From Escherichia coli (GTDB taxonomy: Bacteria; Pseudomonadota; Gammaproteobacteria; Enterobacterales; Enterobacteriaceae), in the NCBI GenBank assembly GCA_902500055.1, contig GCA_902500055.1_4131.1: a stretch of DNA of 64,000 nucleotides. The stretch is one strand, 5' to 3'. The translations under genes and the position numbers were made by a program. The notes under the pieces were generated by a model. The model saw nothing but the letters and a program-made list of their open reading frames with translations. It ran no database searches and had not been told where the DNA came from. This document shows, one piece after another, positions 844 through 46,597 of the stretch (position 1 is its first letter; each line of letters starts with the position of its first letter).

Positions 844-870
844 TTTGTATTCCTTTACTTTTTAAATCAA

Positions 871-889: not shown

Positions 890-907
890 TGTTCCCCGTT
901 ATTTATA

Positions 908-1639: not shown

Positions 1640-1740
1640 TATATAATTCTCCGTTTTATTTGTTAATCAAAAAATGTTTTTATGTAAGATTACTACAAGC
1701 ACCATTATATCTCAAAAATGATGCTTGTCTCAATTTTTTA

Positions 1741-2040: not shown

Positions 2041-2190
2041 TTTTACCTTGTAATGAAGTCCATTCTACATATTTTTCCCATGCCTCATTTACACTTTCTT
2101 CAGTAAGATTCAACATCTCATTAGTGAAAGTATCGTTTACTTCGTCATAGTTTAGTTCAATTTCATTTACAATAACCATATTATTACTCC

Positions 2191-24393: not shown

Positions 24394-25213
24394 TTTTCCT
24401 TTCAATCATGTTCAATTCAATTTCAATTTGACGTGTATGTGATGGCGTAAAGCCATGCATTTCAAGTAAATCATCACGTATATTTCGAACATTTTTCTCA
24501 CTATTCAATATAGAACGAAAACTATTGTTTACGAATGATGTATAGTAAGAGAAAGGATTTAGCTGAACTGCTGGTTTATCTTTTTTATAAAGAATGCTCT
24601 CTTTAAAGAGAAGTGCGTTTTTAACTAATTGTATTCTTGCATCACCCATCATTTCATCTAAGTATGTATAGTTTCTGTAATTAGATTTGTGTGAGATTTC
24701 CTCTGCAAGTTTAATGAACATCTTCCCAAGTTCATTTGTAATTTTACCATGAACAGTACTGAATTCACCAGTTTCAAGGTCGCCTTTCCAGTGAGAACGA
24801 CAAACTTCATAGAGAATACCTTCATTATCTACAATATAATGCTTGAATGGTTCAAAGTTAACTCTAGTATCTGGTGGAATATGTTCATCTGTAATAACAC
24901 GAATAACAACTTCATCAATTGGAACGTCAGTGATAACTAAATTGTGTTCATCTGCATATTCTTTAGCTTTTTTAGCACTCATATTTTCCTTTTCACGAAT
25001 ACTATCAAGCATTTCATTGTTCAGTCGTTTAATTCGGGCTGCCTTAGCTTTTTCTAGTAACTCAGCAGTAATTTCTGACTCATGAAAAACAATATAATCA
25101 TACATACTATATGATTTGTCTAATAACCAGCAATATGAAATTTTACTTTTTTGTATTTCACGCAGTAAATCAGCATTATTGAGATACTTTTTACGCTTTG
25201 GTCTATTTGTCAT
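24374..25213 (-). CDS. 55: putative late-transcription sigma factor (gp55-like)
   Basis: N-terminus KYLNNADLLREIQKSK resembles T4 gp55 KYNYVNNKELLQAIIDWK; adjacent to gene 47 as in T4; late TATAAATA promoters present. The protein is longer (279 aa) than T4 gp55. Confidence 0.5.
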   Translation of the reverse strand: MTNRPKRKKYLNNADLLREIQKSKISYCWLLDKSYSMYDYIVFHESEITAELLEKAKAARIKRLNNEMLDSIREKENMSAKKAKEYADEHNLVITDVPIDEVVIRVITDEHIPPDTRVNFEPFKHYIVDNEGILYEVCRSHWKGDLETGEFSTVHGKITNELGKMFIKLAEEISHKSNYRNYTYLDEMMGDARIQLVKNALLFKESILYKKDKPAVQLNPFSYYTSFVNNSFRSILNSEKNVRNIRDDLLEMHGFTPSHTRQIEIELNMIERKNEDGSV

Positions 25214-25301
25214 TGTATTTTACTCTCCATGTTTAAATCCAATAGGTACAATCCTTGTACCATCAATGTTATTATAGCACCAAAAAGCAGTTTGTCCCAC
25301 G

Positions 25302-25309
25302 TATAAATA
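25302..25309 (+). promoter_or_regulatory. T4-type late promoter TATAAATA (plus strand)
   Basis: Exact TATAAATA ~36 nt upstream of ATG 25345, with RBS GGAG in between. Confidence 0.5.
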
Positions 25310-25344
25310 CATCAAATGTTCCCTTATTATGGAGAATCAAAAAG

Positions 25345-26076
25345 ATGATTGATCGTAGAATTCGATTACGACCTAAAGCCGCAGGTGCTAACTATGTATA
25401 TGGTGATTTTGGAGATAGCTCCGAACCAACTCTACTTTCGTTTCTGCGTCCAACTAATGGGTTGGTTTGGACTGTAACACCAACAATTACTGAACAAAGG
25501 TCAATTCAGTATGAAACACAGTCCCCTATACATACTAACAGTAACTATAACAACTATAAGAACACTACTAATACAGTTTTCACGATTCAGGGTGAATTTT
25601 ATGCGAATACAGCAGCAGAAGCTATGTATGCGTTGGCATGTGTTCATTTTATACGTTCTGTTTCGTTGATGGATTTTGGTAGACAAGCTGCTTCGGCTAA
25701 TAACCCCGAACTCGCAATTGCAGGTGCACCACCACCAATCTTACTTCTAAGTGGATATGGTCGTTATACATATAATGATATTCCTGTTATTTTAAAATCT
25801 TATAATTTTACTTACCCAAATGATGTTTCTTATATTCAAGTTCCGTTGAATAGTAGCGATAGTACTTTTAATTTATCCGACATGGATAGTAGAAAATTCT
25901 TCGAACAACTTAGAAGTACTGGATATATGAACCCACAAGATGAAGTTTGGGTTCCACAAAAAATCTCAGTTATGTTACAACTTGAAGAACAACCAACATC
26001 GGATTATATGACTAAAACGTTCAACCTCAATGCATTCAAACGTGGTGAACTATTACGTAAAGGAGGATTCATTTAA
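25345..26076 (+). CDS. hypothetical baseplate/tail-associated structural protein
   Basis: ORF track 25255..26076; real start taken as ATG 25345 (MIDRRIRLRPK...) downstream of the late promoter and RBS. First gene of the long plus-strand structural operon. Confidence 0.4.
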   Translation: MIDRRIRLRPKAAGANYVYGDFGDSSEPTLLSFLRPTNGLVWTVTPTITEQRSIQYETQSPIHTNSNYNNYKNTTNTVFTIQGEFYANTAAEAMYALACVHFIRSVSLMDFGRQAASANNPELAIAGAPPPILLLSGYGRYTYNDIPVILKSYNFTYPNDVSYIQVPLNSSDSTFNLSDMDSRKFFEQLRSTGYMNPQDEVWVPQKISVMLQLEEQPTSDYMTKTFNLNAFKRGELLRKGGFI

Positions 26077-26401: not shown

Positions 26402-28651
26402 ATGGCAGATTTACGAAGTACAGTTGATAATTTTCAAAATGATATTACAAGTATTACTGGTAAGGCTAAAACCACCACATCTAATGCACTTGATAGTTTG
26501 AAAGCTACAGCAAATACATTACAAAATGATGTGAAAACTATTACAAAAAATAATTACAAAGCAAATGTAAGTAATGTAGTATCATTACCAAAACAAAGTG
26601 CTAGTGTTGATCAAGTTTATGAAGATCTAGATTTAAGTCAGTTTGTAATACCGTATGACAATAAATTATTGAAATATGATAATCCAACATGGCACTTTTG
26701 TTTATTTGCCTTAGATAAAGATGATTTTAAAAACTTTTGGCTTTACCCAGATGCAGAAGTGCAACGACATGTGATATCAGAAAGTGGTGTTACTGGCAAA
26801 TATAATATCACTAGTGTACAAATGACACAAGCTGGACCTTCAACACCAGGAATGACAACAAACTATTGTTTTAATACAGCAGTACTTAATATGTCTGAAA
26901 ATAATAGTATGAGTCTTTATGATGAATTAATTTCGTTAAGTAACAAACTTAGATATCATAAATTTATGGACTTGCCATTGATCTTGGAATTAAAGTTTAT
27001 TGGCTTTAATAAAAATGGAATACCTGAAATTATCCCAGAAACAACAAGACGCTGGTCAGTTAAAATTAATAGTGTTACTGCAAGTGCTTCACAAAGTGGT
27101 AGTACTATGATGTATACTATGAACTTAGTTCATAATAGAGCAGCTTTAGTTGATAACATTGAATGGACCTTAAAAGAACCATTCAATTGTACTGCTGAAA
27201 ACTTTGGTGACTTCTGCTTTGATTTAGAAGATAAATTAAATCAGATGGCTGACCAACAATATGGTTATCTTAGATATAAATTTGGTGAATTATCCGAAGG
27301 TAAATTTTTCGAATTTAAAGTAGCACCTGATTTGCAAGATTTGTTTATAAACTATGATTCTAAACAAATGGCAGAGGCCGGAACAACTAAAAGTGGTGCA
27401 CAAGGTTCTAAAAACTTTTCATGGAACCCAAGTACTCCTATATCTCGAATTATTGATGACGTTATTGATACATGTACTGTACAAGCCGATGATAGTACTA
27501 GTGTGCGTCAATTTGTAAACATTATACCAGTTAAACAATACGTTGGTTTTGATAATTATCGTAATACTTCTGTTTATAAAGTAATTTTTTATATTGTTAG
27601 ATTTAAAATAGGTGATATTGTTCATGAATCGGATTTACAACCTGAAAATTTCACATTTGAGTACTTTTTCGAGAACGCAGAAAAATACGTAGATCCTAAT
27701 GATCAAAAACCAAAAATAAACATGAAAACTTATAATTATCAATTTAGTGGGCTTAATAGTGAGATACTTGATTTGGATTTGAAATTCGATCAGCAATTTT
27801 TCGTAGCCACTACACGTAACCCTGGTCCGATACAAGATGTAGCGAACCATGCAGGTACACATACATCCCAAGAACTCAATATTCAAGGTGTACAATACAA
27901 TAGTATACCAGACGCATGGGCAAAAACAAGTGATTTACGTGTAACTCGTGATTTAGGAGGGATGTTAACACAAGCCCAACAACAATTGTTAACTGAAGTT
28001 GAAACTTTAGCAAAAAATCAAATGCAGGTTGGTAACGCAGAAGAACAAGACCGTTATAATAACTATCAAGTCAATGTTTTACCTCAATATATTGAGGATT
28101 ATGTAACCACTTATGAAGAAAACGATGGCGGTACTGATGGTGTTGGTCACCGTTATGGTGAAGTGTTCACAATGCCAACCGAAGCAACTAACAATGAAAC
28201 AACTTTATCCGCTTCGTTAAACGATAACAGCAGCACATATGAAATGGATAGACGTAAAATACGTGACAACTATTACAATAGACCTTTTTTGTGTAAACTC
28301 GATATGCGTGTAGTAGGCGACCCGTACTGGTTAGGGTGGAGTGATTACTCTTACTTACAATATCTAGAACAAGTAATTAATGGTGAAGATATGGAAATTA
28401 ACCCAGATGATTATCATGTAGCAAATTATATAACATCTGAAGCGTATCTATTACTGAAATTACAACCAGTAATATCAATAAATGATAACACTGGTGTTTT
28501 GGATATTAATACACCAACCACATTTAACCAAACAATTTATCGTGTTAATAAAATTGTTCATGATTTTGGTGCAGGTGGTTCTTTTACACAACAAATTCAA
28601 GCTGCAATTGTAATTCGTGCACTCAAACGTCACGATAGTATAGTTGATTAA
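26402..28651 (+). CDS. large baseplate protein (possible hub component)
   Basis: 749-aa ORF immediately upstream of the gp5-like spike gene; RBS GGAG; function is positional inference. Confidence 0.3.
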   Translation: MADLRSTVDNFQNDITSITGKAKTTTSNALDSLKATANTLQNDVKTITKNNYKANVSNVVSLPKQSASVDQVYEDLDLSQFVIPYDNKLLKYDNPTWHFCLFALDKDDFKNFWLYPDAEVQRHVISESGVTGKYNITSVQMTQAGPSTPGMTTNYCFNTAVLNMSENNSMSLYDELISLSNKLRYHKFMDLPLILELKFIGFNKNGIPEIIPETTRRWSVKINSVTASASQSGSTMMYTMNLVHNRAALVDNIEWTLKEPFNCTAENFGDFCFDLEDKLNQMADQQYGYLRYKFGELSEGKFFEFKVAPDLQDLFINYDSKQMAEAGTTKSGAQGSKNFSWNPSTPISRIIDDVIDTCTVQADDSTSVRQFVNIIPVKQYVGFDNYRNTSVYKVIFYIVRFKIGDIVHESDLQPENFTFEYFFENAEKYVDPNDQKPKINMKTYNYQFSGLNSEILDLDLKFDQQFFVATTRNPGPIQDVANHAGTHTSQELNIQGVQYNSIPDAWAKTSDLRVTRDLGGMLTQAQQQLLTEVETLAKNQMQVGNAEEQDRYNNYQVNVLPQYIEDYVTTYEENDGGTDGVGHRYGEVFTMPTEATNNETTLSASLNDNSSTYEMDRRKIRDNYYNRPFLCKLDMRVVGDPYWLGWSDYSYLQYLEQVINGEDMEINPDDYHVANYITSEAYLLLKLQPVISINDNTGVLDINTPTTFNQTIYRVNKIVHDFGAGGSFTQQIQAAIVIRALKRHDSIVD

Positions 28652-28664: not shown

Positions 28665-31328
28665 ATGGCAGATACAAGTAAAAAGTATGCACAACAGCAG
28701 TTGGGTCGTTTTGACCCATCTTATCCGCAGTTAGCAACTGTTATGGATAACAGAGATCCAACTAAATCAGGAAAACTGAAAGTTTGGATACAAGGTTCTC
28801 AAAGTGATAAAAACTCAAAAGAATCATGGATAGAAGCATCTTACATGTCTCCTTTTGCTGGCAAAACACCAGGTATTCCAAGTGCTGATGCATATGGTCA
28901 ATATCCAAAAGGATATGGTTTTTGGGCAGTACCACCAGATGTAGGGTGTACAGTTGTTGTAATTTTTGCACAAGCCCGTACATTCCAAGCATATTGGATT
29001 GGTTGTGTATATGACCAGCGTATGAATACTATGGTTCCTGGTATGGCAACTGAAGTAAGTAATTATGGTGGAACTGATATGCCACTTCCTGTTACTGACT
29101 ATGATCGTAACACTATCACTACCGATATGCAAGACAAATATGCTAACGTTCCAATTATCGCAGGTCTTAAAAAGCAAAACCTTTTATATGACGAAGAAGC
29201 TGGGTTGGCGAATCGTAGTAGTACTCGTCAAACCACCAGTACTGTATATGGTATGTCTTCGCCACGTGGTAATAGTTTTATTATTGATGATGGATATACT
29301 GAAGAGGAATTAACAGCACCAACGTGGGATCAAGACCCAGATGGATATCAAGATACACAATTTAATAACCCAGTAAACGATACACGTGTTGGTTCTCGTA
29401 AAAATGAAGGTGTCGTAATAAAAACACGTAGTGGTGCACAACTTCTTTTATCAGAAGCTACTGGTGATGTTCTTTTAATTAACCGTGATGGCACTGCACG
29501 TATAAAATTCACTGGTGAAGGTGATATTGACATGCACTGTGATAAGAATATTAATATTCGTGCTGGTCAAGATATTAATATTACTGCTGGACGTTCATAT
29601 AATATTGAAACCGGACAAGATTTCAATGCACGAGTTGGTGCAAATACTAAATTAGATCTAATTGGTGCTCTTGATGCAAAAGTTGGTGGTCAAGTTGTTG
29701 TTAATTCTGGGGCAGACCTTCGTTTAGTTACTGCTGCATCATTACGTATGCAAAGTGGTAGCAGTACTGATATTACGGCTGGTTCAAATGCTTCTATTTC
29801 TGCCGCAACATCTGCAAACCTAATTGGATCATCATCAGCAATTATTAGTGGTGGTGGTCAAACATTAACAGTTAATAGTGGTGGTAATAGCGGTACTGCT
29901 GAATTTACTGCACCAAACTTTAGAACACCATCTGCTGGTCTTAATGAACACATTCATGATATTGCTGCATGGGTTAACGCTGAAAATCATGGTAGTTATG
30001 TTGAACCACCAAGACAAGGTGGTGGAAGTGGTTCTAGTGAATCACCAGTACAACCACAACCAGCAAATGATGTATCACCAGAATTACCCGTAGCACAAGA
30101 CACTGAAGCTGTTCAGTTTGTTAACTATACATCAGAAACTGAACAAGTTCAATCACAAGATTTGATGACATCTGATCCTGGGATGACTGGATATAGTATT
30201 ACATATGAAGGTTTACATATGTTAATGCCATGTAGCGGTACTATTCGCCAATATGGTTATTGGGGGAAAGGTGTTCCAACACAAAGTGGTGGGAAGTCAG
30301 ATCGTTCTGGATGGGAAATACAATGTAAAGGTGATGTAGTTGCACCAGATGGTGGTGTGGTAGTAATTACTAATGGTGCTCTTTTAATACAACATAAGTC
30401 TGGATATAAATCTATTTTTTATAATATTCAATCTGATTTATTAAACAAAGATGTTGTTCAAAAAGGTCAAGTTGTTGGAAAAGCAAATGGTGTCATACAG
30501 TTTGAAATTCGTGTTACATCAGCAAATGTTCTTGGATTCAGTGGTTCTGTTGACCCAGGATTATTTTATGCTTCACAAACAGGAACAGGGTCTGATGCGG
30601 CGAATAAAACATTAATTGGTGGTCAAGCAACTAATCAATCTGCTCCAAAAGCAGTTGTACAACCTTCAGTTGATAGTGATGAATTGGTAGTTACAACAAA
30701 AATCAAAACGATAGGTACTGGATATTCTCAACGTGGTTCTCGTCATGTGCCTCGTAGGAGAAGAACACAGAGAAGTGGAGCTTCAACAACTCCGGTGGAG
30801 CAACCTACCTATAATATTGGAAATGTTGATAAAACTGCAATCGATTGGAAAGTTGTTCCAGGTGATGCACAGTTTATTTCTGAATTAAAAGAATATGAAG
30901 GTACATTACAATACCAACAAGCAAAAGGATATTATCGTAATGGTAAATTCTGGCGTTATTTGGATAGTCGTGGGTATCCAACTATTGGTTATGGTCACTT
31001 GATTATTAGTGGTGAAAACTTTTCAGATGGAATAACTGAACAGCAAGCCAACGATATGTTAGTTCGTGATAGTAGTAAAGCAATTTATGATGCCAAATCA
31101 ATTTATGCATCATATAACATGAAAACTCCTTATCTTGCTCAACAAGTACTATGCCAAATGGTATTTCAGATGGGTAAAGGTGGTGTATTGAAATTTAAAA
31201 CTATGTTATCAGAAATGGCAAAAGGTAATTACAAACAAGCAGCGGCACAAATCCGTAATTCTGCTTGGTATCGCCAAACTACACGCCGTGCGGAGTTAAT
31301 GGCTCGTCGTTTGGAGGCATGTCAATAA
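28665..31328 (+). CDS. 5: baseplate central spike protein (gp5-like) with C-terminal T4-type lysozyme (GH24) domain
   Basis: C-terminal ~150 aa (YEGTLQYQQAKGYYRNGKFWRYLDSRGYPTIGYGHLI ... MVFQMGKGGVLKFKTML ... SAWYRQTTRRAELM) parallels T4 lysozyme ([23 protein letters not shown] ... MVFQMGETGVAGF ... SRWYNQTPNRAKRV); central region has beta-helix-like repeats (NINIRAGQDINITAGRSYNIETGQDFNARVGA...). Confidence 0.75.
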   Translation: MADTSKKYAQQQLGRFDPSYPQLATVMDNRDPTKSGKLKVWIQGSQSDKNSKESWIEASYMSPFAGKTPGIPSADAYGQYPKGYGFWAVPPDVGCTVVVIFAQARTFQAYWIGCVYDQRMNTMVPGMATEVSNYGGTDMPLPVTDYDRNTITTDMQDKYANVPIIAGLKKQNLLYDEEAGLANRSSTRQTTSTVYGMSSPRGNSFIIDDGYTEEELTAPTWDQDPDGYQDTQFNNPVNDTRVGSRKNEGVVIKTRSGAQLLLSEATGDVLLINRDGTARIKFTGEGDIDMHCDKNINIRAGQDINITAGRSYNIETGQDFNARVGANTKLDLIGALDAKVGGQVVVNSGADLRLVTAASLRMQSGSSTDITAGSNASISAATSANLIGSSSAIISGGGQTLTVNSGGNSGTAEFTAPNFRTPSAGLNEHIHDIAAWVNAENHGSYVEPPRQGGGSGSSESPVQPQPANDVSPELPVAQDTEAVQFVNYTSETEQVQSQDLMTSDPGMTGYSITYEGLHMLMPCSGTIRQYGYWGKGVPTQSGGKSDRSGWEIQCKGDVVAPDGGVVVITNGALLIQHKSGYKSIFYNIQSDLLNKDVVQKGQVVGKANGVIQFEIRVTSANVLGFSGSVDPGLFYASQTGTGSDAANKTLIGGQATNQSAPKAVVQPSVDSDELVVTTKIKTIGTGYSQRGSRHVPRRRRTQRSGASTTPVEQPTYNIGNVDKTAIDWKVVPGDAQFISELKEYEGTLQYQQAKGYYRNGKFWRYLDSRGYPTIGYGHLIISGENFSDGITEQQANDMLVRDSSKAIYDAKSIYASYNMKTPYLAQQVLCQMVFQMGKGGVLKFKTMLSEMAKGNYKQAAAQIRNSAWYRQTTRRAELMARRLEACQ

Positions 31329-31868: not shown

Positions 31869-32264
31869 ATGGCAGTTGTTTTTAAAGGGTTTTCTACCCC
31901 TGTAGTTGGTAGAACTGAAACATTGTATGATAGTGAATTGGTTCGCCAAGATTTAATGAATCATTTCAATACAAAAAAAGGTGAACGAGCATTTGATGCT
32001 GACTATGGGTTTATTGCATGGGATTTGCTATTTGAATTGGAAGGTTATAATACTATCAACCTTTTAGAAGCAGATGCCCGTAGAATAATTAGCTTAGACC
32101 CACGTTTAAATCTTAAAAAATTACAAATTTCAAGAATAGAATATGGATACCAAATGAATATTGTATTACAGTACGTAGTATTGGACACATTAGAAGAACT
32201 TACTATAGTATTTGATGCAAGAAGTAATAATCGAATGGCAACATATTCAGTTTCGTCTTTATAA
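31869..32264 (+). CDS. 25: baseplate wedge protein gp25-like (GPW/gp25 family)
   Basis: KGERAFDADYGFIAWDLLFE resembles T4 gp25 KGSRPFDPEFGCDLSDQLFE; size 131 aa versus 132 aa. Confidence 0.6.
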   Translation: MAVVFKGFSTPVVGRTETLYDSELVRQDLMNHFNTKKGERAFDADYGFIAWDLLFELEGYNTINLLEADARRIISLDPRLNLKKLQISRIEYGYQMNIVLQYVVLDTLEELTIVFDARSNNRMATYSVSSL

Positions 32265-32333: not shown

Positions 32334-33041
32334 ATGAAAAGATATTATGGTTTCATTTATCAATGGGAAGATTGTTCCAATGGTATAAAATATATAGGTT
32401 CTCATTATGGAACAACTGATGACAAGTACGTGTCTTCTAATATTATAGTTAATCGCATTTATAAGAGTAGACCCCTTGATTTATCAAGAGTCGTTTTGGA
32501 ATATATTATTGTTAATGATAAGAATTTTTTATTGGAAAGAGAACAAAAATACTTAGATTTAATACTTCCGTCTGAATTGTATACTAGTACCAATAGAAAA
32601 AACAAAACCGTAAAATATTACAACATGAAAAAGAATGCATGTGGTGGTAACGGTGGTATTGGAAGTAATGGTATATTGAAAAATAAAATAAAATATTTTA
32701 ATAAAAATACTTTAGAACAGAAATTCTTTCATTATAATGATGACATATCGGATGATTGGATTAAAGGTGTACCCCCATCTAAGGTTAGTTGTTCAGGTAG
32801 TATTTGGTATCTAAATATACATACTGGAGAAAATAAAAGATTTAGACATAACCCTGGTATAGATTGGATTGAAGGAAAACGCAATACTTCAACAACACCA
32901 AAAAAGGTAAGCACACCATATGGGATTTTCGAAAGTGCATCTGAATGTAGTAGACAAACTGGAATAAAACAAGGAACTGTATCATTTAGGTGTCGTTCCA
33001 AATCAACTAATATGACAAATTGGTTTTATATAGAGGAATAA
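32334..33041 (+). CDS. GIY-YIG homing endonuclease (Seg-like)
   Basis: N-terminal YYGFIYQWEDCSNGIKYIGSHYG is a GIY-YIG motif; basic C-terminal half resembles the DNA-binding region of Seg endonucleases; inserted between gp25-like and gp6-like genes. Confidence 0.6.
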   Translation: MKRYYGFIYQWEDCSNGIKYIGSHYGTTDDKYVSSNIIVNRIYKSRPLDLSRVVLEYIIVNDKNFLLEREQKYLDLILPSELYTSTNRKNKTVKYYNMKKNACGGNGGIGSNGILKNKIKYFNKNTLEQKFFHYNDDISDDWIKGVPPSKVSCSGSIWYLNIHTGENKRFRHNPGIDWIEGKRNTSTTPKKVSTPYGIFESASECSRQTGIKQGTVSFRCRSKSTNMTNWFYIEE

Positions 33042-36506: not shown

Positions 36507-36513
36507 TATAACG

Positions 36514-36537
36514 GGCGTTCTTCGGAACGCCTTTTTT
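36514..36537 (+). terminator. rho-independent terminator (GGCGTTC-ttcg-GAACGCC + T6)
   Basis: Perfect 7-bp stem with tetraloop followed by TTTTTT, after the gp6-like gene. Confidence 0.65.
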
Positions 36538-36585
36538 ATATCATAAATAAATCAAATGAATGAACGAATTATATGGAGTCCAAAA

Positions 36586-39500
36586 ATGACTAATAATTTT
36601 AAGTTTCAACCTACACAGATGGCTGAAGCAGTACAGAAGAAGCTTTTTATTAAAAGATTGCCTGAGTGGATGCAAGGCTTAGAAGATATTCAAAAAGTCA
36701 GTGATGATGTTATTCAACAATGGTTTAATCCGGCTGAAAACGAATTAGTTGACGGCTATATTGGTGATATGGGTTCTCCTGCCGCTGCTGGTAATATCTT
36801 CTTACATGAAAGTACTGTAGCACGTCAACTTTATCAGTTGTCCACTGCTTACGTCTCAAAAAATGATGATTCGACAATTCGTTCAATTCAATTTTATGAT
36901 GATCTAGTTGGATACATGAATCATTATGGAGCACTAACCGATAATGAAAGCCGTTTGTTCAACGGTAAGTTTTATGCATGGACTCCAGCTATTAACCCAA
37001 ATAAAATGAACAATTTTAGCTCATATCTTTGGGATACTAAAAACTCTTATAATATTACTTCACCTGATTACATTGTAATGGAACGTGGAGCACTTAATGG
37101 TAATACATGGTCACTACAAAACTTTTGGTATACTTTAGGTGAAACATTAGAAGATGGCTCAATATTAACTGAAGAATTAATGCAAGATTCACGTTTTATT
37201 CGTGCACGTGCACCAATTATTGAATATAATAAAAATATTGAGCTAATTAACTACGGTACAAAATTCCGTGGAACTGTTGATCTGTTCTCTGATATTATTA
37301 AACCTGAAGATATCGTTCAAAAAGATATTAATAGTGGTATACGTATTGATGGTATTATTCCGCAAGATGGAATGCGTATTCTATTCACCAGTATTGGTAA
37401 CAATGGTGAAAACAATAGAATTTATAATGTATATGTGAAAAAAATGCAAGATGGTACTCGTGTTTATGGTTTAGCACTAGATCCAGAAGAAGAAACCGAA
37501 TCACGCCCAAGTGGTGAACCACAAGATGGTGATGTTGTTCTAATCACTAAAGGTAATGAGTATGGTAATAGTTCTATGTACTGGAATGGATCTTTGTGGG
37601 TTCGTGCACAATCAAAAACTAGTGTTAACGTATTCCCTAAATTCCAACTTTATGATCGTAATGGTATCAAACTTGACAACAGTACTACATATCCATCAAG
37701 TAACTTTAAAGGTTCAGAGTTGTTTGGTTTTAAAATAAATTACAACTATGCAACTGATAGTGTATATGGATATAACATTGAACTTGGTGATTATAATTAT
37801 TACATTTATGAAAACTTTTTACAATCCCAACGTTATACCTATGACCATCTTGGAAAAGAAGTTGAAATTGATGGTTTATACTATTATAACATTATTGATG
37901 AAAATAATGAAATGAATCTTCAAACCGATTGGGTTCGTTCAGAAGAGTACTCTAAACAATTTGTAAAACAAACTCCACAAGTCAAACGTACTGATATGTA
38001 TCGTGTATTCAGTACTGTTTATGATATGGAAGTTTTTAAAGAACCAGTTGATGGTATGTATGCATATGTTATTGAAGTTGATAGAACCTATCAGTACTAT
38101 AAAGCAGACCGCGAAACTTATCTAGACTGGCATCCAATCACTGGTGATGGTGTTCAGATTGTAAAATATGACCATACATTCGAATTGGCACAAAAAGTTT
38201 TAGATAATGATTCTGATATTATTGAAGTTGTGGTTGATGGTGTTGATGTGTCCAAATATACCAAAAATGTTTCAAAAGGTCAAGTACAAAGCATCACTCT
38301 AGATAGTACTGTAGATTTGGATGAAGATTCTGTTATTCAAATCAGAACTTATAGCAGTACTGTAACTCCTAATAAAGAATTAGGTGCATATGAAGTTCCA
38401 ATCAACCTACAAAATAACCCATATAATTCTAATATTATATACATTAACCAAGGTGACTACACTTTACATTTTCAGGATATTATTCAAAAGAACATTACAC
38501 GTGGTTCTTCTGATGATTTCAATGACTATGAAGAACGTTTGGCTAAAGGATTGGTTAATAATGGCGTAGGTACTAAAATTATCCAAAATGAAGCATCTAT
38601 GCTTCCATTGATGGCACATACTGCAAATGAAGATATTGATTTGTTTGAAGCAACTATGTTTATGCAATCTGAATATTTTAGATTCATTAATAAATTTAAT
38701 ACACAAATGCTTCGTATGTATGATGAAAATCCATCAGACTTTTTACAAAATAGTGCTGCAAACATTGTTGATGCAATTTTAACTACTATTAATATGGGAC
38801 GTGATAGTTCATTCCCATTCTATTATGATAATGTTGGAAGTACTTCTGGATTCATTCGTGCATTTATACCACCAACACCACAGTTCTTAGGTATTCTTCA
38901 AGCATATGTACCAGAAAAAGCGACATTCCTCACTGCTGGTAGTAAACCAAGCTGTTATAACATCAGTCATACTGGTATTATTTCCAAAGCATACCGTGTT
39001 ATCAATGGTGTTGATAAAATGGATGATGTTGTATATGAATTAGAAAATAGAATTTTTAATAGTATTGATAATAAATTCAAAGATGTTGATTACGTACCAG
39101 TATTGAATAGTGATGACCTTTTCCCTACACCATATTTCACTAAAACTGAATATAGTGCTGAAGAGAAACAAACATTATTACTACGTGGATACATTAACTT
39201 CACCGCAACTAATGGTATCAGTAATAGTACACATGATTATGATCCTAACAATTGGAGAACTTGGAACTATACTGGCACTTATTATGTAGTTAATGGTCAA
39301 AGTACTGAAATTCCTGCTCGTGGTTCATGGCGTGCAATTTATACTGACCAATATGGTACATATCGCCCTGCAACACATCCGTGGGAAATGTTTGGCTTTT
39401 CACAGCGTCCAACTTGGTGGAACCAAGAATATGAACCAACTGCTGTTCAAGTTGGTGAGCGTGATAGTGATGTGGTATATGTATATGAAGCACTTGTTAT

Positions 39501-42500
39501 GAATGAACAAGGAGATTTAGTTCCTAGTGGTCTATGGGATATCGACGGCACTATCGGAGATAGTAGTACTGGTACTATTTTGTCTGGTGATCGCCGTGGA
39601 CAGTATGACAAATATAAAAGATTTGGTGTACAGCCATTTAAAATCACAAAAACTGGTAATAAAACATCTTCCGGTATTGATATTTGTGTTGTTGAATATA
39701 TTGCACCTGAAATTTTAGGTTTAGTGTCTGGTTCTTTAAATCATAGAGCAGAACCTTGGGCATATGGTGACATGGGTGACATGGAATTTACATACATGAA
39801 CACTACATTGTTTGCATATGACCAAATGCTACTTTTGTATAAAGCTAAACCTGCACAATTTGCTAACTATTTTTGGGATACCCGAAATGACAATTTAAAA
39901 GAAGTATTCACTGATGGTTCACAATTCCTTTATGGTGATACACGTAAGCGTATTAATTTTGATAAAAACACTGTAGTTCATGGTGAAAATAACACAAGAA
40001 CAATTGGTTATCAAATGTTTGTTAGTGATTATTTGATGTATCAAAATAAAAACATTACAACCAAATATGGGGATGTAGTTCGTTCTTCTTATATAAATGT
40101 TGGTCATAAAATTGGTGGTTTTACTAAAGCAGATCAGCTAACATTCAATGCTAAATCATTTGGTCTTATTTCACAAGAAAACCAAACTATTGGTCTTGTT
40201 CGCTCGAATAATATTCGTGATGAACAAATGAGTGCTATCAAAATTACTTGGAATGGTAGTGCATATCAGATTGATGGATATGATTTAGTTGGTGCTAAAT
40301 TCAAATATAAACTGCCAGTGAAAAATGGTAGAAAAGTAACTCTTAAATTAGAAAACCGCAATGTTGTTCATTATAACGAATGGAAATCTGAAGCTTCCAT
40401 TGAATATGGTAAAGTTTTTAATAGTTACCAAGAAGTTTATACTTTTATTTGTGGTTATGGTGAATATCTTAAAGAACATGGCTGGATTTTTGAAGATGTA
40501 AATGATAGTGGTGCTCAACAAGATTGGAACACTATTGCTAAAGATTTTGTGATCTGGAGTCAGAATTCTCTGGTAACGGGTGAATTTATTTCTTGTACAC
40601 CAAGTGCAGCAAATGCTAAATTTGGTGCAGACTTTGGTTCAGTTCAATCTATTACACAAAATAACGGTGGTGTGTGGTCATTACTTGATGATAACAACCA
40701 AGGTATACGTCAATATGAAATTGAAACTTCTCGTATTGGTAATATCTTTACTGTTAGAACTTTAGAATCCAATAAACGTATAGCATTAATTCGTTTAAGT
40801 TTGTGTTCATATGAACATGCTGTTATTTTTGATGATAAGACTATTTTTGGTGATTATATCTATCAGCCAACTTATGGTTCTATTCAAGAATTAATTAAAA
40901 TGTATGGCTACATTACTGGTTCATGGACTGGTCGTCTACAAGCTCCTGGATTTATTATCTTGGAAGCTGGAACACTACCATCATTTGAAAAATTAGTGTC
41001 GGATTTCCAACATTATTATGATAGTGAAACTCCAGTAAGTGATGTACAATTACAAGAGTTGTCAAACCATTTGATTGGTTATCAATCTCGTGATTATCTA
41101 CAGCGTATGATTAGTAGTGATGTTAGTCGTGTTGATTTCTATAAAGGATTCATTCATGATAAAGGTACTAACCAAGTTTTAGAACGTGTACTTCGTGTTT
41201 CTAAATCATATGACACAGATGAATATAAAGCATTACAAGAATGGGCATTTAAAATTGGTACATATGGTAATATTGATGGTAAGAAAAACCTTCAATTTAA
41301 ACTAATCAATGACCAATTTAAACAACAACCACAAATGGTATCTTTTGATGTAAACGCTACTTCAAATGGAAATGGAAACAATATTGTATACTTCGGCGAA
41401 CAAGGTAAAGATCCTCGTTGGATTACACGTCCAAATGGTAAGTTCTCATTCCCGATGCGTAGTGGAAGAAGTGAAAACATTCAACTTCCAGATATTGGTC
41501 CAGTAACATTGGATGAAGTATCTTACACTACAAAAGATTTCAGTACTGCATATAATGACCGTATAACTTACACTAATGGTAAAGGTGAAAACCCTGAATC
41601 TGTTTGGATGTTTAAAGACGGAAATGGTTTATGGAATATTTTTGAATTAGTTGATACTAATGTGCAAATGGTTTCTATAACACCTATTGAAAATACCGAT
41701 GTGTATGCTGAACAATTTTGTAAAGTAACTTTAACTGATAATGTGCCACTTGAAGATGGTGATTATTATTATTTTGTTGATGAAACTAACTTTATGCCAG
41801 ATACTTTAACAGTAGAAAGTCAATATTATACTGCTGGTTCTGATCCTAAAGTTATGGTAGTTCCATTTGACACTTCTATTGATATTGAATTTACTGATCC
41901 AGATACACGTCCACGTTTGTATCGTTATGTATCACGTTTTGCCAGTGCAGAAGAGCGTCAAGCATATATTGACAAAAAGTATAGTTACAAAGCACCACAA
42001 AGTACTTTTTTTGACCGTCCAACTACATATGATGAACGTACTAACATTACTGCATTATATCTAAATGTGTATGACCCTATCAATGGGGTTATTCCTGGTG
42101 CAGCAATGCAAAACGTAACTTATACGTCACCAATAGACCCAGCACAATATAATAGCAATGGTGAATTAATTCAGGCTTGGGGTGCTGATAAAGTTGGTCA
42201 AGTATGGTGGAACACTAGCACTGCATTTTATTTGGATTATACTCGTGCAATTTATGACGCAGACGGTAATGTTGACATTGATGCAACCAATGAATACAAA
42301 CGTTACAACTGGGGTCGTTTATTACCACATAGTACAATTGATGTGTTAGAGTGGGTTTGTTCACCAGTTGAGCCATATAACTGGGACAAATACTGTAAAG
42401 ATGTTGCTAAGAAAAACAAAAATAATACTATGTATCTACCAAGTGGAACTGCACTTGAAGATAATTATAGTACATTTTTGGAATATGATAGTTCAACTGA

Positions 42501-45500
42501 TAGTTATGTGACAAAATACTATTTCTGGGTACGTGATACAATTTATGTACCACCACTACATACCAGAACAAAATCATGTACTGACATTGCTCGTATTATT
42601 AAAGATCCAACACAGCTAAACATTCCTTGGTTCGCTCCAATCAATGAAAACTCGTTTATTCTTAGTAATATGCAATTTAAAGTGAATGATGATACCAGTA
42701 TTTTAACTGTTTCTTATTACATGGATAGTACTGAAGTTGTTAAACATGACCAGTATCAACTATGTAAAGAAGGTGACAGCTATAACTTTAACCCACTAAT
42801 TTGGGATTCAATGTGGAACTCACTAATTGGTCAAGAAACAACTGAATCAGGTTCTGTGATTAATTTATTATATCCAGATGTTGATAACGGTTTAGGTTCA
42901 AACAAAACTTGGTTCCAAAATGTTATAGAAGCTCGTAGAAACTTTGTAGAAAGTGCTAATAATTATTATAGGTCACAAAACATAACCACTAATAGTGTTG
43001 TTATGAAAGATGTGTTTAATGTTAAAACCACTGAAGTTAACCCTAATGAAGTTTCTTTCCGTGTCTTGTCTTACAATAATGAATTAGTTATTGCAGTTGA
43101 AAGTGATAAATTTAAAGAAAATGACGCTGTTATTTTAAGTACTAGTGGATATCTACCAAATCCATTAACTTCTAGTGCTGTTTATTTTATTCACTTCGAC
43201 GAAAATGGATATATTCAGTTAATGAATAGTCCAGCAAACGCGGGTAGTGTTGTTACTATAACGTTAGAGAACAAAGGTGAGGGACAACATAAAATGATTA
43301 AGCAATCTGATTATGTTGAATCACTAGGAACTTCATTAGACATGACTCAGTACTGGTCATATGCTGATTGGTATGATGTTGGGTATGATAGTAACACGAC
43401 TTATACACAAGAGTCAAGCTTAGAAGATGCTAATACTAAAAACTACCAAGTTGGCGATATTATCAGAGTTACCGATAGTGAAAACATTTGGACATTGTAT
43501 ATTAAATCACAATCACGCGATTCAATTTATTGGAAAGCGATTGGTCGTGAAAACAGTACAGTTGAACTCAATGATATGCTTTACGCAGATTATAGTGTTC
43601 ATAATGATAATGGTTCACTAAGCAATCGTGAAATCAACGTTCGTAAAGCACTAGCTTTACTCAAAAATTCTTTCGATTTACATCAAAGCGAAATTGTTTT
43701 TGATATGGTCAAATATGTACATGTTGAACAAAGTGTTGTGGATTGGGTATTTAAAACATCATATATCTATATTGTTGGTTTGGAACAATCATTAGTTCAA
43801 AACTATTCAAACGATAATTTGATTAATCAAATTGTTGAATATTTTGAAGAAGTTAAACCTTATAGAACTAAAATTCGTTCACAAATAGAGCAAAAGACAT
43901 CTGATGATGATTTAATAAAAGGTCTATGTAATGATTTAGATCCTAATGGATATATTTTCGTTGATGGTTCTTGGATCAAAACTGAAAAAGATATTTGGGA
44001 TTATGAGTACGCTCAATTTAATGAAATTACCCAAAAATGGGAACAGGTAGGTTCACTACCAAGTGATTTCGTTACACCAAATAGAAGATTCCAAGAAATT
44101 GATATTATTATGCATTATGATAATATTCAGTGTAAACCAAATGAAGATTTGGCAAGCATAAATGAATTAGTAAGTGTTAATAACAAATATCAATCCAATG
44201 AAAAGGATGCTGTTAGTAACTATGAATTACAACGTTATATATATTCTTTCCCAGAATATAGTGAAGAAACTTTCGATCTTCTTATTGCTTATCAAATGCA
44301 AATCTACTATCCAGAATTGGATGTAACACTAGGAACAGCATATGGCGTTAACCAGTGGTATAAAGACCATGCGGAAGATTTAGAAGCAACTGATGAATTC
44401 ACTGCTACATTGGAACGTGTTTATAAAGAATCAACGCATAACGATATGTTTACTGACCTTAGACAATATGTTCAGTATAACACATTGGCAAACCGTTTGA
44501 AACTTTATAAAGATATAAGTGATGAGAAAATTCACGATGAAGTTGGATGTGGATTTAGTGGACTTACTTATAATGACAATCCTAGTACTAGACTTCCATT
44601 AGGCTTTTCTTCTAGTAATGATTATAACTATGGATATTTTGAAATAAGCAGTGAATTGTATCAAAAATACATTTCATTAATTAAAGATAAAAATCCTGAC
44701 GCATCAGACTATGAAGTAAAAGTTAAACTTGAAGTTGAGTATGGTGTATATGTTTATCGTTATGATGAAGTAGGTGGTGATACCCGTTTCTATACTGATG
44801 CTATTCACGTATTAGCAGGTATGAGAGGGTTATTCGACAAAGACGCTACTGATAAGTACGAAAAAGCTGAAGAGATTCTTAGTAAGACCCCAATTGATAT
44901 CTATGCAATTACAATGATTCCACGAAAATATGTTTACTTAAATGTTAACGGTGTATATCAAAGTATACCTGATGAACAAAGTATTGATGATTTCATGGAA
45001 GATTATTTTATCACAAATGGTGAAATGGTTGAACTAGCTGAAATAAATCTTGATGATTTACCACTAGATCAAAATAATCCAATGTATTCTGATTATCAAT
45101 ATATACTTGATAGTATTACTGAAGCTAAGTACTTCAATGATATGAATGCATTTGATAACCTAGCATTAGAATCTCAAACTTCTTCAATAAAATGGGAAGT
45201 TAAAGATGATGAGGTTGATCCTTATATTGTGGATATATCTGACATAAACCCTTCTGGGCGTGATGTTGGTCAAATTAGATTTACAGTTGATGGATATGGG
45301 TTTGACAATGTATCTCTTGTACAATTACGTGATAACAGCAGATATCAAACTGAAGGTATGGCAATTATCAATCCATATAAACATACAGAAGCAATTGTTA
45401 GTATTCCTTCATATGCTAAGATTGAAAATGATATTAATAAAACAACATCGAAGTTTGATGAAAAATATTTCTATCGTGTGAGATCTATTAATAGCTTAAC

Positions 45501-46557
45501 TGAAGCAGAAATAGTTGACAATGACCTATCTGATGGTGATAAGGTGATGATTTTCACTCCTGATGGTGAAGATTTTGTGAGATATCAAAATCACACATGG
45601 GAAACAATCTTGCGTGTATCTAACATCAAAAACAATACAACTCCGATCCTATTCACTGTAAGAAATACAGGTAAGGAAACGATTGAATTGATTGATGAGA
45701 GTACTGGTGCAGTTCTCCGTTATGATAACATCACTCTTGCACAACAAAATGAGCCAGTACAGCCTCTAGCATTGAACATTGTTCGTGTTAGAACATTTGC
45801 TGACCCTGAATTTGTCAAGAATGGTATTAAATTGTATGAACAAAATAGAAATTACACCATTGATGTAATTAATTATGATGTTTTCTACGATACTACTTTA
45901 AATGGTGGTAAGTACAATGACGGAATAACACCAGATGACGTTGACGTTTGGATAATCTCTAATGAAATATTTGATGTTGATGGAATTACTATCGATAACG
46001 GTTATAACTTACCAATTACGGGTGCGGGAGTTCTTAGTGAATTGGCAAGAACTAAAATGACTGATAGTTTAGAAATCAACGTTATCGAATATGATTCAAG
46101 TGTTATTCAACCGTTTAGAAATAATGAAGGGATATGGGTTTATGGATTCCCAATGGTTGACGGTATGTATATCGGTGTTGTTGGTGGTACTGTTACTAAC
46201 ATCACAACCATTAGTGAAGAAAATACAACCTATGTTTCTCAACCTAAATCAATAAGTCCTTATAGTATTAGAAATAATGTTTTATCCGGTTCAGCCGCAA
46301 ACATGAATGATATTATATCGATTGGATATGAAAAAGTTGAAGTTAGAAATGCAAATAATTTACTCCGTGGTGTAATGTATAGTGCAGAACATGATTTTAA
46401 ACTTAATACTACATATTCTTTCAATGGAATTAATTTAGGTAATTATGATATGTTAAAACGTTACACACAAAATAGTTACACTATAGATCTTTCAGTATAC
46501 ACTGATAGTCTACAAGTTAGTGGTAATGATATTAAAAATATATTATTAGTTAAGTAA
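36586..46557 (+). CDS. giant virion structural protein (~3,320 aa), positional analogue of baseplate gp7
   Basis: Uninterrupted ~10-kb reading frame in the baseplate module; start set to ATG 36586 (GGAG 8 nt upstream) rather than track start 36556, which lacks an RBS. Non-repetitive, Asn/Tyr/Asp/Thr-rich. No catalytic motif recognised by eye. Confidence 0.6.
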   Translation: MTNNFKFQPTQMAEAVQKKLFIKRLPEWMQGLEDIQKVSDDVIQQWFNPAENELVDGYIGDMGSPAAAGNIFLHESTVARQLYQLSTAYVSKNDDSTIRSIQFYDDLVGYMNHYGALTDNESRLFNGKFYAWTPAINPNKMNNFSSYLWDTKNSYNITSPDYIVMERGALNGNTWSLQNFWYTLGETLEDGSILTEELMQDSRFIRARAPIIEYNKNIELINYGTKFRGTVDLFSDIIKPEDIVQKDINSGIRIDGIIPQDGMRILFTSIGNNGENNRIYNVYVKKMQDGTRVYGLALDPEEETESRPSGEPQDGDVVLITKGNEYGNSSMYWNGSLWVRAQSKTSVNVFPKFQLYDRNGIKLDNSTTYPSSNFKGSELFGFKINYNYATDSVYGYNIELGDYNYYIYENFLQSQRYTYDHLGKEVEIDGLYYYNIIDENNEMNLQTDWVRSEEYSKQFVKQTPQVKRTDMYRVFSTVYDMEVFKEPVDGMYAYVIEVDRTYQYYKADRETYLDWHPITGDGVQIVKYDHTFELAQKVLDNDSDIIEVVVDGVDVSKYTKNVSKGQVQSITLDSTVDLDEDSVIQIRTYSSTVTPNKELGAYEVPINLQNNPYNSNIIYINQGDYTLHFQDIIQKNITRGSSDDFNDYEERLAKGLVNNGVGTKIIQNEASMLPLMAHTANEDIDLFEATMFMQSEYFRFINKFNTQMLRMYDENPSDFLQNSAANIVDAILTTINMGRDSSFPFYYDNVGSTSGFIRAFIPPTPQFLGILQAYVPEKATFLTAGSKPSCYNISHTGIISKAYRVINGVDKMDDVVYELENRIFNSIDNKFKDVDYVPVLNSDDLFPTPYFTKTEYSAEEKQTLLLRGYINFTATNGISNSTHDYDPNNWRTWNYTGTYYVVNGQSTEIPARGSWRAIYTDQYGTYRPATHPWEMFGFSQRPTWWNQEYEPTAVQVGERDSDVVYVYEALVMNEQGDLVPSGLWDIDGTIGDSSTGTILSGDRRGQYDKYKRFGVQPFKITKTGNKTSSGIDICVVEYIAPEILGLVSGSLNHRAEPWAYGDMGDMEFTYMNTTLFAYDQMLLLYKAKPAQFANYFWDTRNDNLKEVFTDGSQFLYGDTRKRINFDKNTVVHGENNTRTIGYQMFVSDYLMYQNKNITTKYGDVVRSSYINVGHKIGGFTKADQLTFNAKSFGLISQENQTIGLVRSNNIRDEQMSAIKITWNGSAYQIDGYDLVGAKFKYKLPVKNGRKVTLKLENRNVVHYNEWKSEASIEYGKVFNSYQEVYTFICGYGEYLKEHGWIFEDVNDSGAQQDWNTIAKDFVIWSQNSLVTGEFISCTPSAANAKFGADFGSVQSITQNNGGVWSLLDDNNQGIRQYEIETSRIGNIFTVRTLESNKRIALIRLSLCSYEHAVIFDDKTIFGDYIYQPTYGSIQELIKMYGYITGSWTGRLQAPGFIILEAGTLPSFEKLVSDFQHYYDSETPVSDVQLQELSNHLIGYQSRDYLQRMISSDVSRVDFYKGFIHDKGTNQVLERVLRVSKSYDTDEYKALQEWAFKIGTYGNIDGKKNLQFKLINDQFKQQPQMVSFDVNATSNGNGNNIVYFGEQGKDPRWITRPNGKFSFPMRSGRSENIQLPDIGPVTLDEVSYTTKDFSTAYNDRITYTNGKGENPESVWMFKDGNGLWNIFELVDTNVQMVSITPIENTDVYAEQFCKVTLTDNVPLEDGDYYYFVDETNFMPDTLTVESQYYTAGSDPKVMVVPFDTSIDIEFTDPDTRPRLYRYVSRFASAEERQAYIDKKYSYKAPQSTFFDRPTTYDERTNITALYLNVYDPINGVIPGAAMQNVTYTSPIDPAQYNSNGELIQAWGADKVGQVWWNTSTAFYLDYTRAIYDADGNVDIDATNEYKRYNWGRLLPHSTIDVLEWVCSPVEPYNWDKYCKDVAKKNKNNTMYLPSGTALEDNYSTFLEYDSSTDSYVTKYYFWVRDTIYVPPLHTRTKSCTDIARIIKDPTQLNIPWFAPINENSFILSNMQFKVNDDTSILTVSYYMDSTEVVKHDQYQLCKEGDSYNFNPLIWDSMWNSLIGQETTESGSVINLLYPDVDNGLGSNKTWFQNVIEARRNFVESANNYYRSQNITTNSVVMKDVFNVKTTEVNPNEVSFRVLSYNNELVIAVESDKFKENDAVILSTSGYLPNPLTSSAVYFIHFDENGYIQLMNSPANAGSVVTITLENKGEGQHKMIKQSDYVESLGTSLDMTQYWSYADWYDVGYDSNTTYTQESSLEDANTKNYQVGDIIRVTDSENIWTLYIKSQSRDSIYWKAIGRENSTVELNDMLYADYSVHNDNGSLSNREINVRKALALLKNSFDLHQSEIVFDMVKYVHVEQSVVDWVFKTSYIYIVGLEQSLVQNYSNDNLINQIVEYFEEVKPYRTKIRSQIEQKTSDDDLIKGLCNDLDPNGYIFVDGSWIKTEKDIWDYEYAQFNEITQKWEQVGSLPSDFVTPNRRFQEIDIIMHYDNIQCKPNEDLASINELVSVNNKYQSNEKDAVSNYELQRYIYSFPEYSEETFDLLIAYQMQIYYPELDVTLGTAYGVNQWYKDHAEDLEATDEFTATLERVYKESTHNDMFTDLRQYVQYNTLANRLKLYKDISDEKIHDEVGCGFSGLTYNDNPSTRLPLGFSSSNDYNYGYFEISSELYQKYISLIKDKNPDASDYEVKVKLEVEYGVYVYRYDEVGGDTRFYTDAIHVLAGMRGLFDKDATDKYEKAEEILSKTPIDIYAITMIPRKYVYLNVNGVYQSIPDEQSIDDFMEDYFITNGEMVELAEINLDDLPLDQNNPMYSDYQYILDSITEAKYFNDMNAFDNLALESQTSSIKWEVKDDEVDPYIVDISDINPSGRDVGQIRFTVDGYGFDNVSLVQLRDNSRYQTEGMAIINPYKHTEAIVSIPSYAKIENDINKTTSKFDEKYFYRVRSINSLTEAEIVDNDLSDGDKVMIFTPDGEDFVRYQNHTWETILRVSNIKNNTTPILFTVRNTGKETIELIDESTGAVLRYDNITLAQQNEPVQPLALNIVRVRTFADPEFVKNGIKLYEQNRNYTIDVINYDVFYDTTLNGGKYNDGITPDDVDVWIISNEIFDVDGITIDNGYNLPITGAGVLSELARTKMTDSLEINVIEYDSSVIQPFRNNEGIWVYGFPMVDGMYIGVVGGTVTNITTISEENTTYVSQPKSISPYSIRNNVLSGSAANMNDIISIGYEKVEVRNANNLLRGVMYSAEHDFKLNTTYSFNGINLGNYDMLKRYTQNSYTIDLSVYTDSLQVSGNDIKNILLVK

Positions 46558-46565
46558 TAAAAAAA

Positions 46566-46597
46566 GGAGAGCATTATGCTCTCCTTTTCTTTTTTTA
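46566..46597. terminator. bidirectional terminator (GGAGAGCAT/ATGCTCTCC, A-run upstream, T-run downstream)
   Basis: Perfect hairpin between convergent giant structural gene (+) and ClpA-like gene (-). Confidence 0.65.

Follow-up and report, generated by a model that had tools for sequence, protein, structure and literature searches.

In contractile tails of the P2 and Mu type, the baseplate genes stand in the order gpW-gpJ-gpI-fibre (W-J-I-H in P2), and P2 gpI, like Mu gp48, Pam3 gp23 and TssG, is a small protein of roughly 180-350 amino acids (aa). In T4, gp6 has 660 aa and the gp7 gene, which encodes 1,032 aa, lies directly after the gp6 gene. In solved contractile systems the gp7-like wedge subunit holds the fibre-docking sites (PMC9942802), and in Afp12, Pvc12 and Alg12 a laterally exposed, plastic part of the wedge, described as an "evolutionary hotspot", binds differing fibres or mediates superstructures (PMC8894135). 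The literature searched offers no baseplate structure at high resolution for Rak2-like or PA5oct-like phages. The sequence analysed here, called the window, is a stretch of 64,000 nucleotides (nt) from an Escherichia coli assembly (GCA_902500055.1, contig GCA_902500055.1_4131.1), in which the gene at 36586..46557, in the slot of gp7, encodes a protein of 3,323 aa, hereafter the giant.

The giant is probably an outer (peripheral) baseplate-wedge protein of a Rak2-like jumbo myophage, the counterpart of T4 gp7, P2 gpI and Mu gp48, and this reading is given a probability of roughly 0.6. It is drawn from the presence of the protein in virions, its fixed gene position, its enlarged gp6-like partner, its compact core, its variable insertions and the fibre genes downstream. 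The first-pass annotation of the window had taken the product for a structural protein, and virion proteomes bear this out for its orthologues, to which, rather than to the isolate in the window, the mass spectrometry (MS) data belong. The phAPEC6 orthologue, gp245 (381.9 kDa), was detected in virions by electrospray ionization tandem MS (ESI-MS/MS) with 17 unique peptides and 7.6% coverage (PMC7247149), and CBB_236 of Pectobacterium phage CBB was detected by the same method with 21 unique peptides (PMC5259590), which disposes of the concern that the product might be absent from virion proteomes. The RefSeq record of the PA5oct homologue, which has 3,857 aa and 29% identity to the window giant, also bears an ESI-MS/MS note. 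The orthologue of the gp6-like neighbour, phAPEC6 gp244, is present in the virion with 21 peptides (PMC7247149).

The gene position is conserved over long distances. Directly upstream of the giant lies a gene assigned to gp6 because of its match to phrog_219 and because its residues 28-118 are co-linear with T4 gp6 residues 21-110 (E 0.0016). The window presents, in order, a 273-aa virion protein, a 104-aa "baseplate wedge subunit" (phrog_7145), a 749-aa virion protein and the spike, followed by a lysozyme, gp25, a homing endonuclease, the gp6-like protein of 1,153 aa and the giant. The order spike, gp25 (PF04965), gp6-like, giant is common to the window, phAPEC6, RaK2, PA5oct and four distant metagenomic contigs. 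The four homologues looked up on these contigs have 2,780, 3,826, 4,890 and 5,638 aa and 24-28% identity, and in all four cases proteins of about 270, about 100 and 700-890 aa, the spike, gp25, the gp6-like protein and the giant follow one another in this order; a fragment contig likewise has a giant-family gene behind gp25 and a gp6-like gene of 1,164 aa. The gp7 position proposed at first reading is thus kept in every distant relative examined. The enlargement of the gp6-like neighbour (1,153 versus 660 aa), also noticed then, proves to be a family trait, with orthologues of 1,123-1,176 aa, which carry DUF8360, in the four metagenomic contigs and of 1,319 aa in PA5oct. Fibre-type genes, labelled Peptidase_S74, Gp34_trimer, Collar or "T4-like gp10", are found 1-3 genes downstream of the giant in PA5oct and in three of the four metagenomic contigs (L002, L003 and L006).

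By its nucleotide identity of about 98%, the window belongs to Asteriusvirus and is PBECO4/121Q/phAPEC6-like; the 10-kb stretch of the giant gene is 97.7-98.2% identical to E. coli jumbo phages that include PBECO4, 121Q, phAPEC6, G17 and slurp01. The giant, orthologous to phAPEC6 gp245, RaK2 ORF070, CBB_236 and 121Q 582, is 99-100% identical in protein sequence to the PBECO4, 121Q and phAPEC6 orthologues and matches phrog_10938 with 5,789 bits over positions 1-3324 of this 3,324-position profile. Translation gives a single uninterrupted open reading frame (ORF) on the + strand at 36556..46557, of 3,333 aa from the first ATG and with no internal stops. Among 35 phage records that cover at least 80% of the 10-kb stretch, nearly all annotate one coding sequence (CDS). 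In four records, OR699181-3 (Salmonella phages SD-1, SD-2 and SD-6) and MH494197 (CMSTMSU), the orthologue is cut into 3-9 "hypothetical proteins" and the alignments are fragmented too, which probably reflects assembly indels and not biology. Diverged relatives show 82% nucleotide identity versus about 90% amino acid identity over the core, and this excess of protein over nucleotide identity indicates purifying selection. Judged from these comparisons, the giant ORF is no frameshift artefact: the single frame of about 10 kb reported earlier is a real gene, intact in dozens of genomes, and no frameshift that splits it was found. The protein had also been called non-repetitive, and indeed Tandem Repeats Finder finds no tandem repeats in the gene, while self-BLASTP at E≤10 yields the identity match alone and so no internal protein repeats.

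ATG 36586 is the better start and gives 3,323 aa to the stop at 46557. It is preferred because of the spacing of the GGAG ribosome-binding site, the spacing of the late-promoter-like motif CATAAATA, the N-termini of homologues and the existence of an identical protein of 3,323 aa in the database (P0001). The distance from CATAAATA to this ATG equals that seen at other window genes, and the N-termini of distant homologues, at 22-32% identity, align to its Met; the place of CATAAATA makes ATG 36556 hardly usable as a start. Because it has a late-type promoter motif and a terminator-like hairpin on each side, the giant gene looks like its own late transcription unit, with CATAAATA as its putative promoter. 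Its base composition is like that of the adjoining genes.

By sequence the giant belongs to a very large family of giant proteins of jumbo phages, which is annotated no further than "structural". A homologue search found 196 proteins, and every one of the 120 listed has 2,779-5,638 aa. A profile of the N-terminal 165 aa, run against 1.84 billion representative proteins, gives 1,359 matches at E≤1e-3 and 572 at E≤1e-30, so the family comprises at least 1,359 clusters at 50% identity. In the best 150 of the 1,359 matches, from which positions and lengths are taken, the N-terminal domain never extends beyond about residue 175 and lengths are mostly 2,000-6,362 aa; two short matches that were checked proved to be fragments or split genes and come from short contigs. 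Cultured members are Rak2-like phages of Escherichia, Klebsiella, Salmonella, Erwinia, Yersinia, Cronobacter, Serratia and Pectobacterium, together with a Vibrio phage, the PA5oct group, Atu_ph07, Sinorhizobium phage Phosso and Salicola phage SCTP-2, and partial members are found in Xoo-sp13, XacN1 and CM1.

The family shares a conserved core, interrupted by large lineage-specific insertions at two hot-spots and followed by a clade-specific C-terminal region. The core consists of co-linear blocks in the BLAST block map (aa 1-149, 149-460, 575-1590, 1815-2135 and 2250-2450), and the first hot-spot is found directly after aa 149. At the second hot-spot the alignment with one relative (P0094) jumps from s1985 to s3698, and two others have FG-GAP repeats there (FG-GAP_2 at P0092 2743-2791 and P0120 2373-2411). 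The C-terminal 873 aa are absent or replaced in distant homologues according to the block map, C-terminal extensions are unrelated between clades, and close relatives have, per 100-aa window, 54-77% identity from aa 2501 onwards versus 73-92% in the core. Accessory domains, mapped in two relatives, place CBM5/12 and YHYH modules in the C-terminal extension; LamG and TIG domains are recorded in other family members, with positions unmapped. W, G, P, Y, F and N predominate among the invariant residues of the family, which suits a structural protein better than a catalytic one.

AlphaFold2 models, built as tiles with 22-sequence alignments, cover aa 1-1200 and 1201-2400. The first tile (predicted local distance difference test, pLDDT, 83; predicted template-modelling score, pTM, 0.77) is modelled as a compact, mixed alpha/beta body of several domains with a confident helical region at aa 606-735. 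The second tile (mean pLDDT 75, pTM 0.46) has mixed, beta-rich secondary structure. Residues 1-80 are conserved, yet modelled with pLDDT below about 50, and aa 1411-1545 (second-tile residues 211-345) also fall below 50 despite their top conservation; both are likely assembly interfaces on the strength of these models, with aa 1411-1545 as a candidate inter-subunit interface. Foldseek searches of BFVD return only pieces of the same family, such as an Atu_ph07 "structural protein", with template-modelling (TM) scores of 0.6-0.8 for the closest; members are picked up down to 13% identity, and the matches that rank below them are noise. That independently predicted relatives superpose at TM 0.6-0.8 supports the model of the giant, which is without detectable relative among solved structures.

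These models also bear on the idea that the giant is itself a receptor-binding fibre or spike, such as a giant side fibre, instead of a baseplate scaffold. Such a role would agree with the carbohydrate-binding and adhesion modules of distant relatives, and tail-fibre proteins do appear among weak BFVD matches, although at TM about 0.08. The giant, however, has no repeats, coiled coils, beta-helix or fibre Pfam domains, its first 1,200 aa are modelled as compact, and separate fibre genes exist. Unlike receptor-binding proteins, it keeps a strongly conserved core in phages of hosts as diverse as Escherichia, Pseudomonas, Agrobacterium and Salicola. A fibre or spike is for these reasons improbable, and the first-pass annotation, which held that the giant is not a simple fibre, is upheld on this point.

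Other results weigh against a place in the wedge and are taken together here. The MS data show virion presence only, and the baseplate location is what we infer; the phAPEC6 tail map, at about 25 Å, gives gp245 no density (PMC7247149). Presence in the virion would also suit a protein sited elsewhere, as an anchor for the "hairs" of sheath or capsid or as a protein ejected into the host, for which the place in the baseplate block would be incidental, and phAPEC6 and CBB do bear unusual fibres on tail and capsid, whose proteins are not assigned (PMC7247149, PMC5259590). This explanation is a little more improbable still than a fibre: the order spike, gp25, gp6-like, giant is kept at just 22-30% identity, and the family reaches phages that are not reported as hairy (PA5oct and Atu_ph07).

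The comparisons with gp7 belong on the same side of the balance. None of the Pfam gp7 models, PF21428 (helical), PF21427 (domain V) and PF21456 (domain VI), matches the giant, and T4 gp7, as positive control, matches all three at E 5e-30 to 2e-47. In hhalign, the family reaches a probability of 0.1% with a 19-sequence gp7 profile, which spans just 46-97% identity, so that very remote homology might escape it; the 23-sequence family profile reaches 0.5% with T4 gp7 itself, and deep sub-alignments reach 0.4% and 0.2% with gp7. Alignment of the giant family with the gp6-like family gives 0.2%, with no sign of the pseudo-threefold paralogy of T4, and the best PDB match that Foldseek returns for aa 1201-2400 has E 0.033. 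These tools demonstrate no homology to gp7, and the giant is best read as a positional and functional analogue.

A true but extremely diverged gp7 homologue, in which a small gp7/gpI-like core of helical hairpin and trifurcation domain would sit amid accreted domains, is rather unlikely, although it has more in its favour than gene position after a gp6 homologue. The best local alignment of aa 590-790 with the whole gp7 profile pairs aa 670-712 with gp7 646-694, exactly on the gp7 helical core-bundle domain (Pfam Gp7_helical covers T4 gp7 643-689), and the poor modelling of aa 1-80 and 1411-1545 as a monomer is as expected of assembly interfaces. By eye, "LLPLM...EY.RF" at aa 672-698 resembles "LRPLL...EYYLQF" of gp7, and this is the top local match of hhalign. 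The helical match is, however, a non-significant lead (P=0.28, probability 0.2%), the other profile tests are negative, and fold searches give no informative match outside the family. At E≤10, neither Tail_P2_I nor any other Pfam model matches the N-terminal 250-400 aa of five divergent members, and the central conserved segment of six divergent members gives two unrelated chance matches only, the gp7 models being absent from both sets. A second resemblance seen by eye, between "FY..KGT" at aa 1518-1530 and T4 gp7 733-741, was rejected after hhalign with a 134-sequence sub-alignment did not pair the two regions.

It had further been suggested that the giant may be a fusion of several baseplate or fibre-network proteins or carry enzymatic domains, and neither suggestion is supported by the searches. 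A fusion of recognisable T4-type peripheral proteins, from gp7 to gp11, would account for a size near the sum of T4 gp7, gp8, gp9, gp10 and gp11 (2,475 aa) and for the lack of gp8-gp11 homologues adjoining the wedge genes, but a family hidden Markov model of 46 sequences, run with filters off, scores at most 4.4 bits on T4 gp53, gp5, gp6-gp14 and wac, and the profile comparison with gp7 is as negative as described above. An enzymatic domain, such as a depolymerase or a peptidase, is named in one record, OQ411014 of phage EJP2, which labels the orthologue "D-alanyl-D-alanine carboxypeptidase"; this label has no peptidase support in Pfam, NCBIfam or PDB searches and is probably an annotation error. 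Pfam has no match to the full-length giant (E≤0.01) or to five overlapping 800-aa tiles (E≤5), NCBIfam has no match to the giant, and PDB sequence searches with the giant and with the 23-sequence family profile have none, so no enzymatic domain is found for giant, tiles or family profile even at permissive thresholds. The invariant residues, too, are those of a structural protein. Fusion and enzyme are the least probable of the explanations considered, and very improbable indeed.

If the giant is a peripheral wedge protein, a mechanism can be proposed. It would be transcribed late as its own unit, between the two terminators, and one copy per wedge, six per virion, would amount to about 2.3 MDa in total. 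Around the hub and spike, each copy would assemble with two of the enlarged gp6-like subunits, on which gp25 would sit as a cap, in a stoichiometry of 1:2 with the gp6-like protein. The conserved core (aa 1-2450) would form the bulk of the baseplate periphery, and the two hot-spots and the fast-evolving C-terminal 873 aa would be exposed at the surface, where they may dock the fibres proper to each lineage, touch the host surface, or both. The FG-GAP, CBM5/12 and YHYH modules of relatives and the faster divergence of the C-terminal region speak for such exposure. The attachment signal would then be relayed to the gp6/gp25 ring and trigger sheath contraction. The long fibres of RaK2 attach to the baseplate through the N-terminal anchor of gp528 (PMC10253068), and the giant would be the obvious candidate for the baseplate partner of this anchor.

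A broader proposal is tentative and stands at somewhat less than even chances: the family may be a previously unrecognised single-chain "outer baseplate", made of folds without solved relatives, which replaces the T4 gp7-gp11 periphery in the Rak2/PA5oct/Atu_ph07 supergroup and displays host-binding and fibre-docking modules on the hot-spots and the C-terminal extension. If this is true, part of host-range evolution takes place in the baseplate scaffold itself and not only in the fibres.

The coordinates of the giant, its regions, its flanking signals and its neighbours are collected in Table 1.

Table 1. Features of the giant gene and of the surrounding baseplate block, in window coordinates.
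Feature	Coordinates	Strand	Details
749-aa virion protein	26402-28651	+	directly upstream of spike; matches only its own PHROG (11190)
Central spike, gp5/VgrG-like OB domain and C-terminal lysozyme	28665..31328	+	PF04717, PF10106, PF00959; phrog_13211
Stand-alone lysozyme, 162 aa	31365-31853	+	matches phrog_13211 positions 727-885 (C-terminal lysozyme domain of the spike family)
gp25/gpW-like sheath-initiator wedge protein	31869..32264	+	PF04965, E 1.2e-8; phrog_43
Free-standing homing endonuclease	32334-33041	+	I-TevI-type DNA-binding domain PF20987; phrog_314; between gp25 and gp6-like genes
Enlarged gp6/gpJ-like baseplate wedge protein, 1,153 aa	33045..36506	+	phrog_10646; phrog_219, E 1.4e-20
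Terminator-like hairpin and T-run	36513..36532	+	between gp6-like and giant genes; 8-bp stem with 5 G-C pairs, then TTTTTATATC
CATAAATA late-promoter-like motif	36542..36549	+	7/8 match to T4 late-promoter consensus TATAAATA; 44 nt before ATG 36586
GGAG ribosome-binding site	36575..36578	+	7 nt before ATG 36586; read directly from the sequence
Giant virion protein gene	36586..46557	+	3,323 aa plus stop; PHROG 10938; 98% nt identity to Asteriusvirus records
N-terminal family-defining domain, aa 1-150	36586..37035	+	at the extreme N-terminus of all homologues; ends at invariant Y147-x-W149
Conserved core, aa 1-2450	36586..43935	+	common to the whole family; BLAST block map versus 67 homologues
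Helical hairpin region (predicted), aa 672-735	38599..38790	+	helices 672-680, 686-714, 716-721, 724-735; pLDDT above 90
Most conserved segment, aa 1411-1545	40816..41220	+	top identity window in 3/3 divergence groups: 0.91, 0.70, 0.54
Variable region, second insertion hot-spot, aa about 1600-1815	41383..42030	+	insertions in distant relatives reach about 1,700 aa
Clade-specific C-terminal region, aa 2451-3323 (873 aa)	43936..46554	+	tblastn: only inside giants of Rak2-like phages
Strong terminator-like hairpin	46562..46588	+	12-bp stem and T-run; 5 nt past the stop codon of the giant
ClpA/ClpB-like double-AAA ATPase, 769 aa	46595-48904	-	phrog_4871; convergent, next gene after the giant

Late-promoter-like motifs are rare in the window: [CT]ATAAATA occurs at just nine sites in 64 kb (907, 11033, 12242, 14122, 18119, 18168, 25302, 31341 and 36542), six of which precede a listed gene start by 24-55 nt; taking the phAPEC6 start for gp238 adds a seventh. 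This distribution fits the gp55-like late sigma factor that is annotated in phAPEC6 at the place corresponding to the window ORF 24374-25213. The ORF 25255-26076 (+) has TTG 25255 as its mechanical start and phAPEC6 annotates a shorter gene of 732 nt; the true start is probably about 25345, because TATAAATA at 25302 falls inside the longer ORF.

Among the neighbours, the stand-alone lysozyme appears, from its profile match, to be a duplicated copy of the domain of the spike itself; its gene is directly downstream of the spike, under its own TATAAATA motif (31341). The homing endonuclease insert is common only to phage TH47 (86% identity), 121Q and JP4 have a different HNH endonuclease at this site, and most relatives are without insert. 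Identity falls from 98% in the giant gene to about 94% in the flanks of the insert, as homing-associated co-conversion might produce. In place and roughly in length, the 749-aa protein matches what a tail of about 120 nm would need as its tape measure, and it would be a better-placed candidate for this role than the giant. The Clp-like ATPase has the same position in RaK2 (ORF069) and phAPEC6 (gp246c). That it acts as a chaperone for very large virion proteins is speculation, and the idea of a chaperone dedicated to the giant was set aside, the ATPase gene not being adjacent to the giant in distant relatives.

Dozens of records already label the ORF "virion structural protein", and the presence of its product in virions is published. 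Four points appear to be undescribed in the literature searched: that a family of more than 1,300 clusters occupies the gp7 slot; where its core, hot-spots and C-terminal extension lie; that it has no solved structural relative; and that the fusion and enzyme ideas are rejected. The supergroup of jumbo phages concerned includes therapy candidates (PA5oct, RaK2 and E. coli Asteriusviruses), and the giant addresses the question of what fixes their elaborate fibres to the tail: this 380-kDa protein in the gp7 slot is probably the scaffold on which they are mounted. The family that it defines is among the largest of giant virion proteins, and its mapped conserved, variable and insertion regions are a target for structural biologists and candidate sites of module swapping for engineers. 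The case also illustrates that conservation of gene order can outlast all detectable similarity of sequence and fold in a core tail component.

Compared with described families, the giant is a full-length member of the "virion structural protein" group of PHROG 10938 and of Rak2-like, PA5oct-like and Atu_ph07-like phages, from which it shows no difference. Tape measure proteins are long, largely alpha-helical and encoded upstream of the hub and spike, whereas the giant is mixed or beta-rich and encoded downstream of the wedge genes. It differs from tail fibres and tailspikes by its lack of repeats and of fibre Pfam domains and by its compact aa 1-1200. With P2 gpI, Mu gp48, Pam3 gp23 and TssG it has in common the order W (gp25), J (gp6), I, and in its distant relatives also the fibre genes downstream, although in the window itself the next gene is the convergent Clp-like ATPase and not a fibre gene as in gpW-gpJ-gpI-fibre; segments of the giant family also lack the Tail_P2_I match of the gpI type at E≤10. 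Compared with T4 gp7, the giant is 3.2 times longer and has no detected similarity of sequence, profile or fold, and where T4 needs separate gp8, gp9, gp10 and gp11, no such genes flank it. Like T4 gp7, however, it is a large multi-domain virion protein encoded directly after a gp6 homologue, and its expected role is the same, that of a peripheral wedge subunit which would link the gp6 ring to the fibre-bearing periphery. In Afp12, Pvc12 and Alg12 a gp6-like part is fused to a gp7-like part, whereas the gp6-like partner of the giant is separate and dissimilar; with these proteins the giant shares a conserved core that carries variable and putatively exposed insertions.

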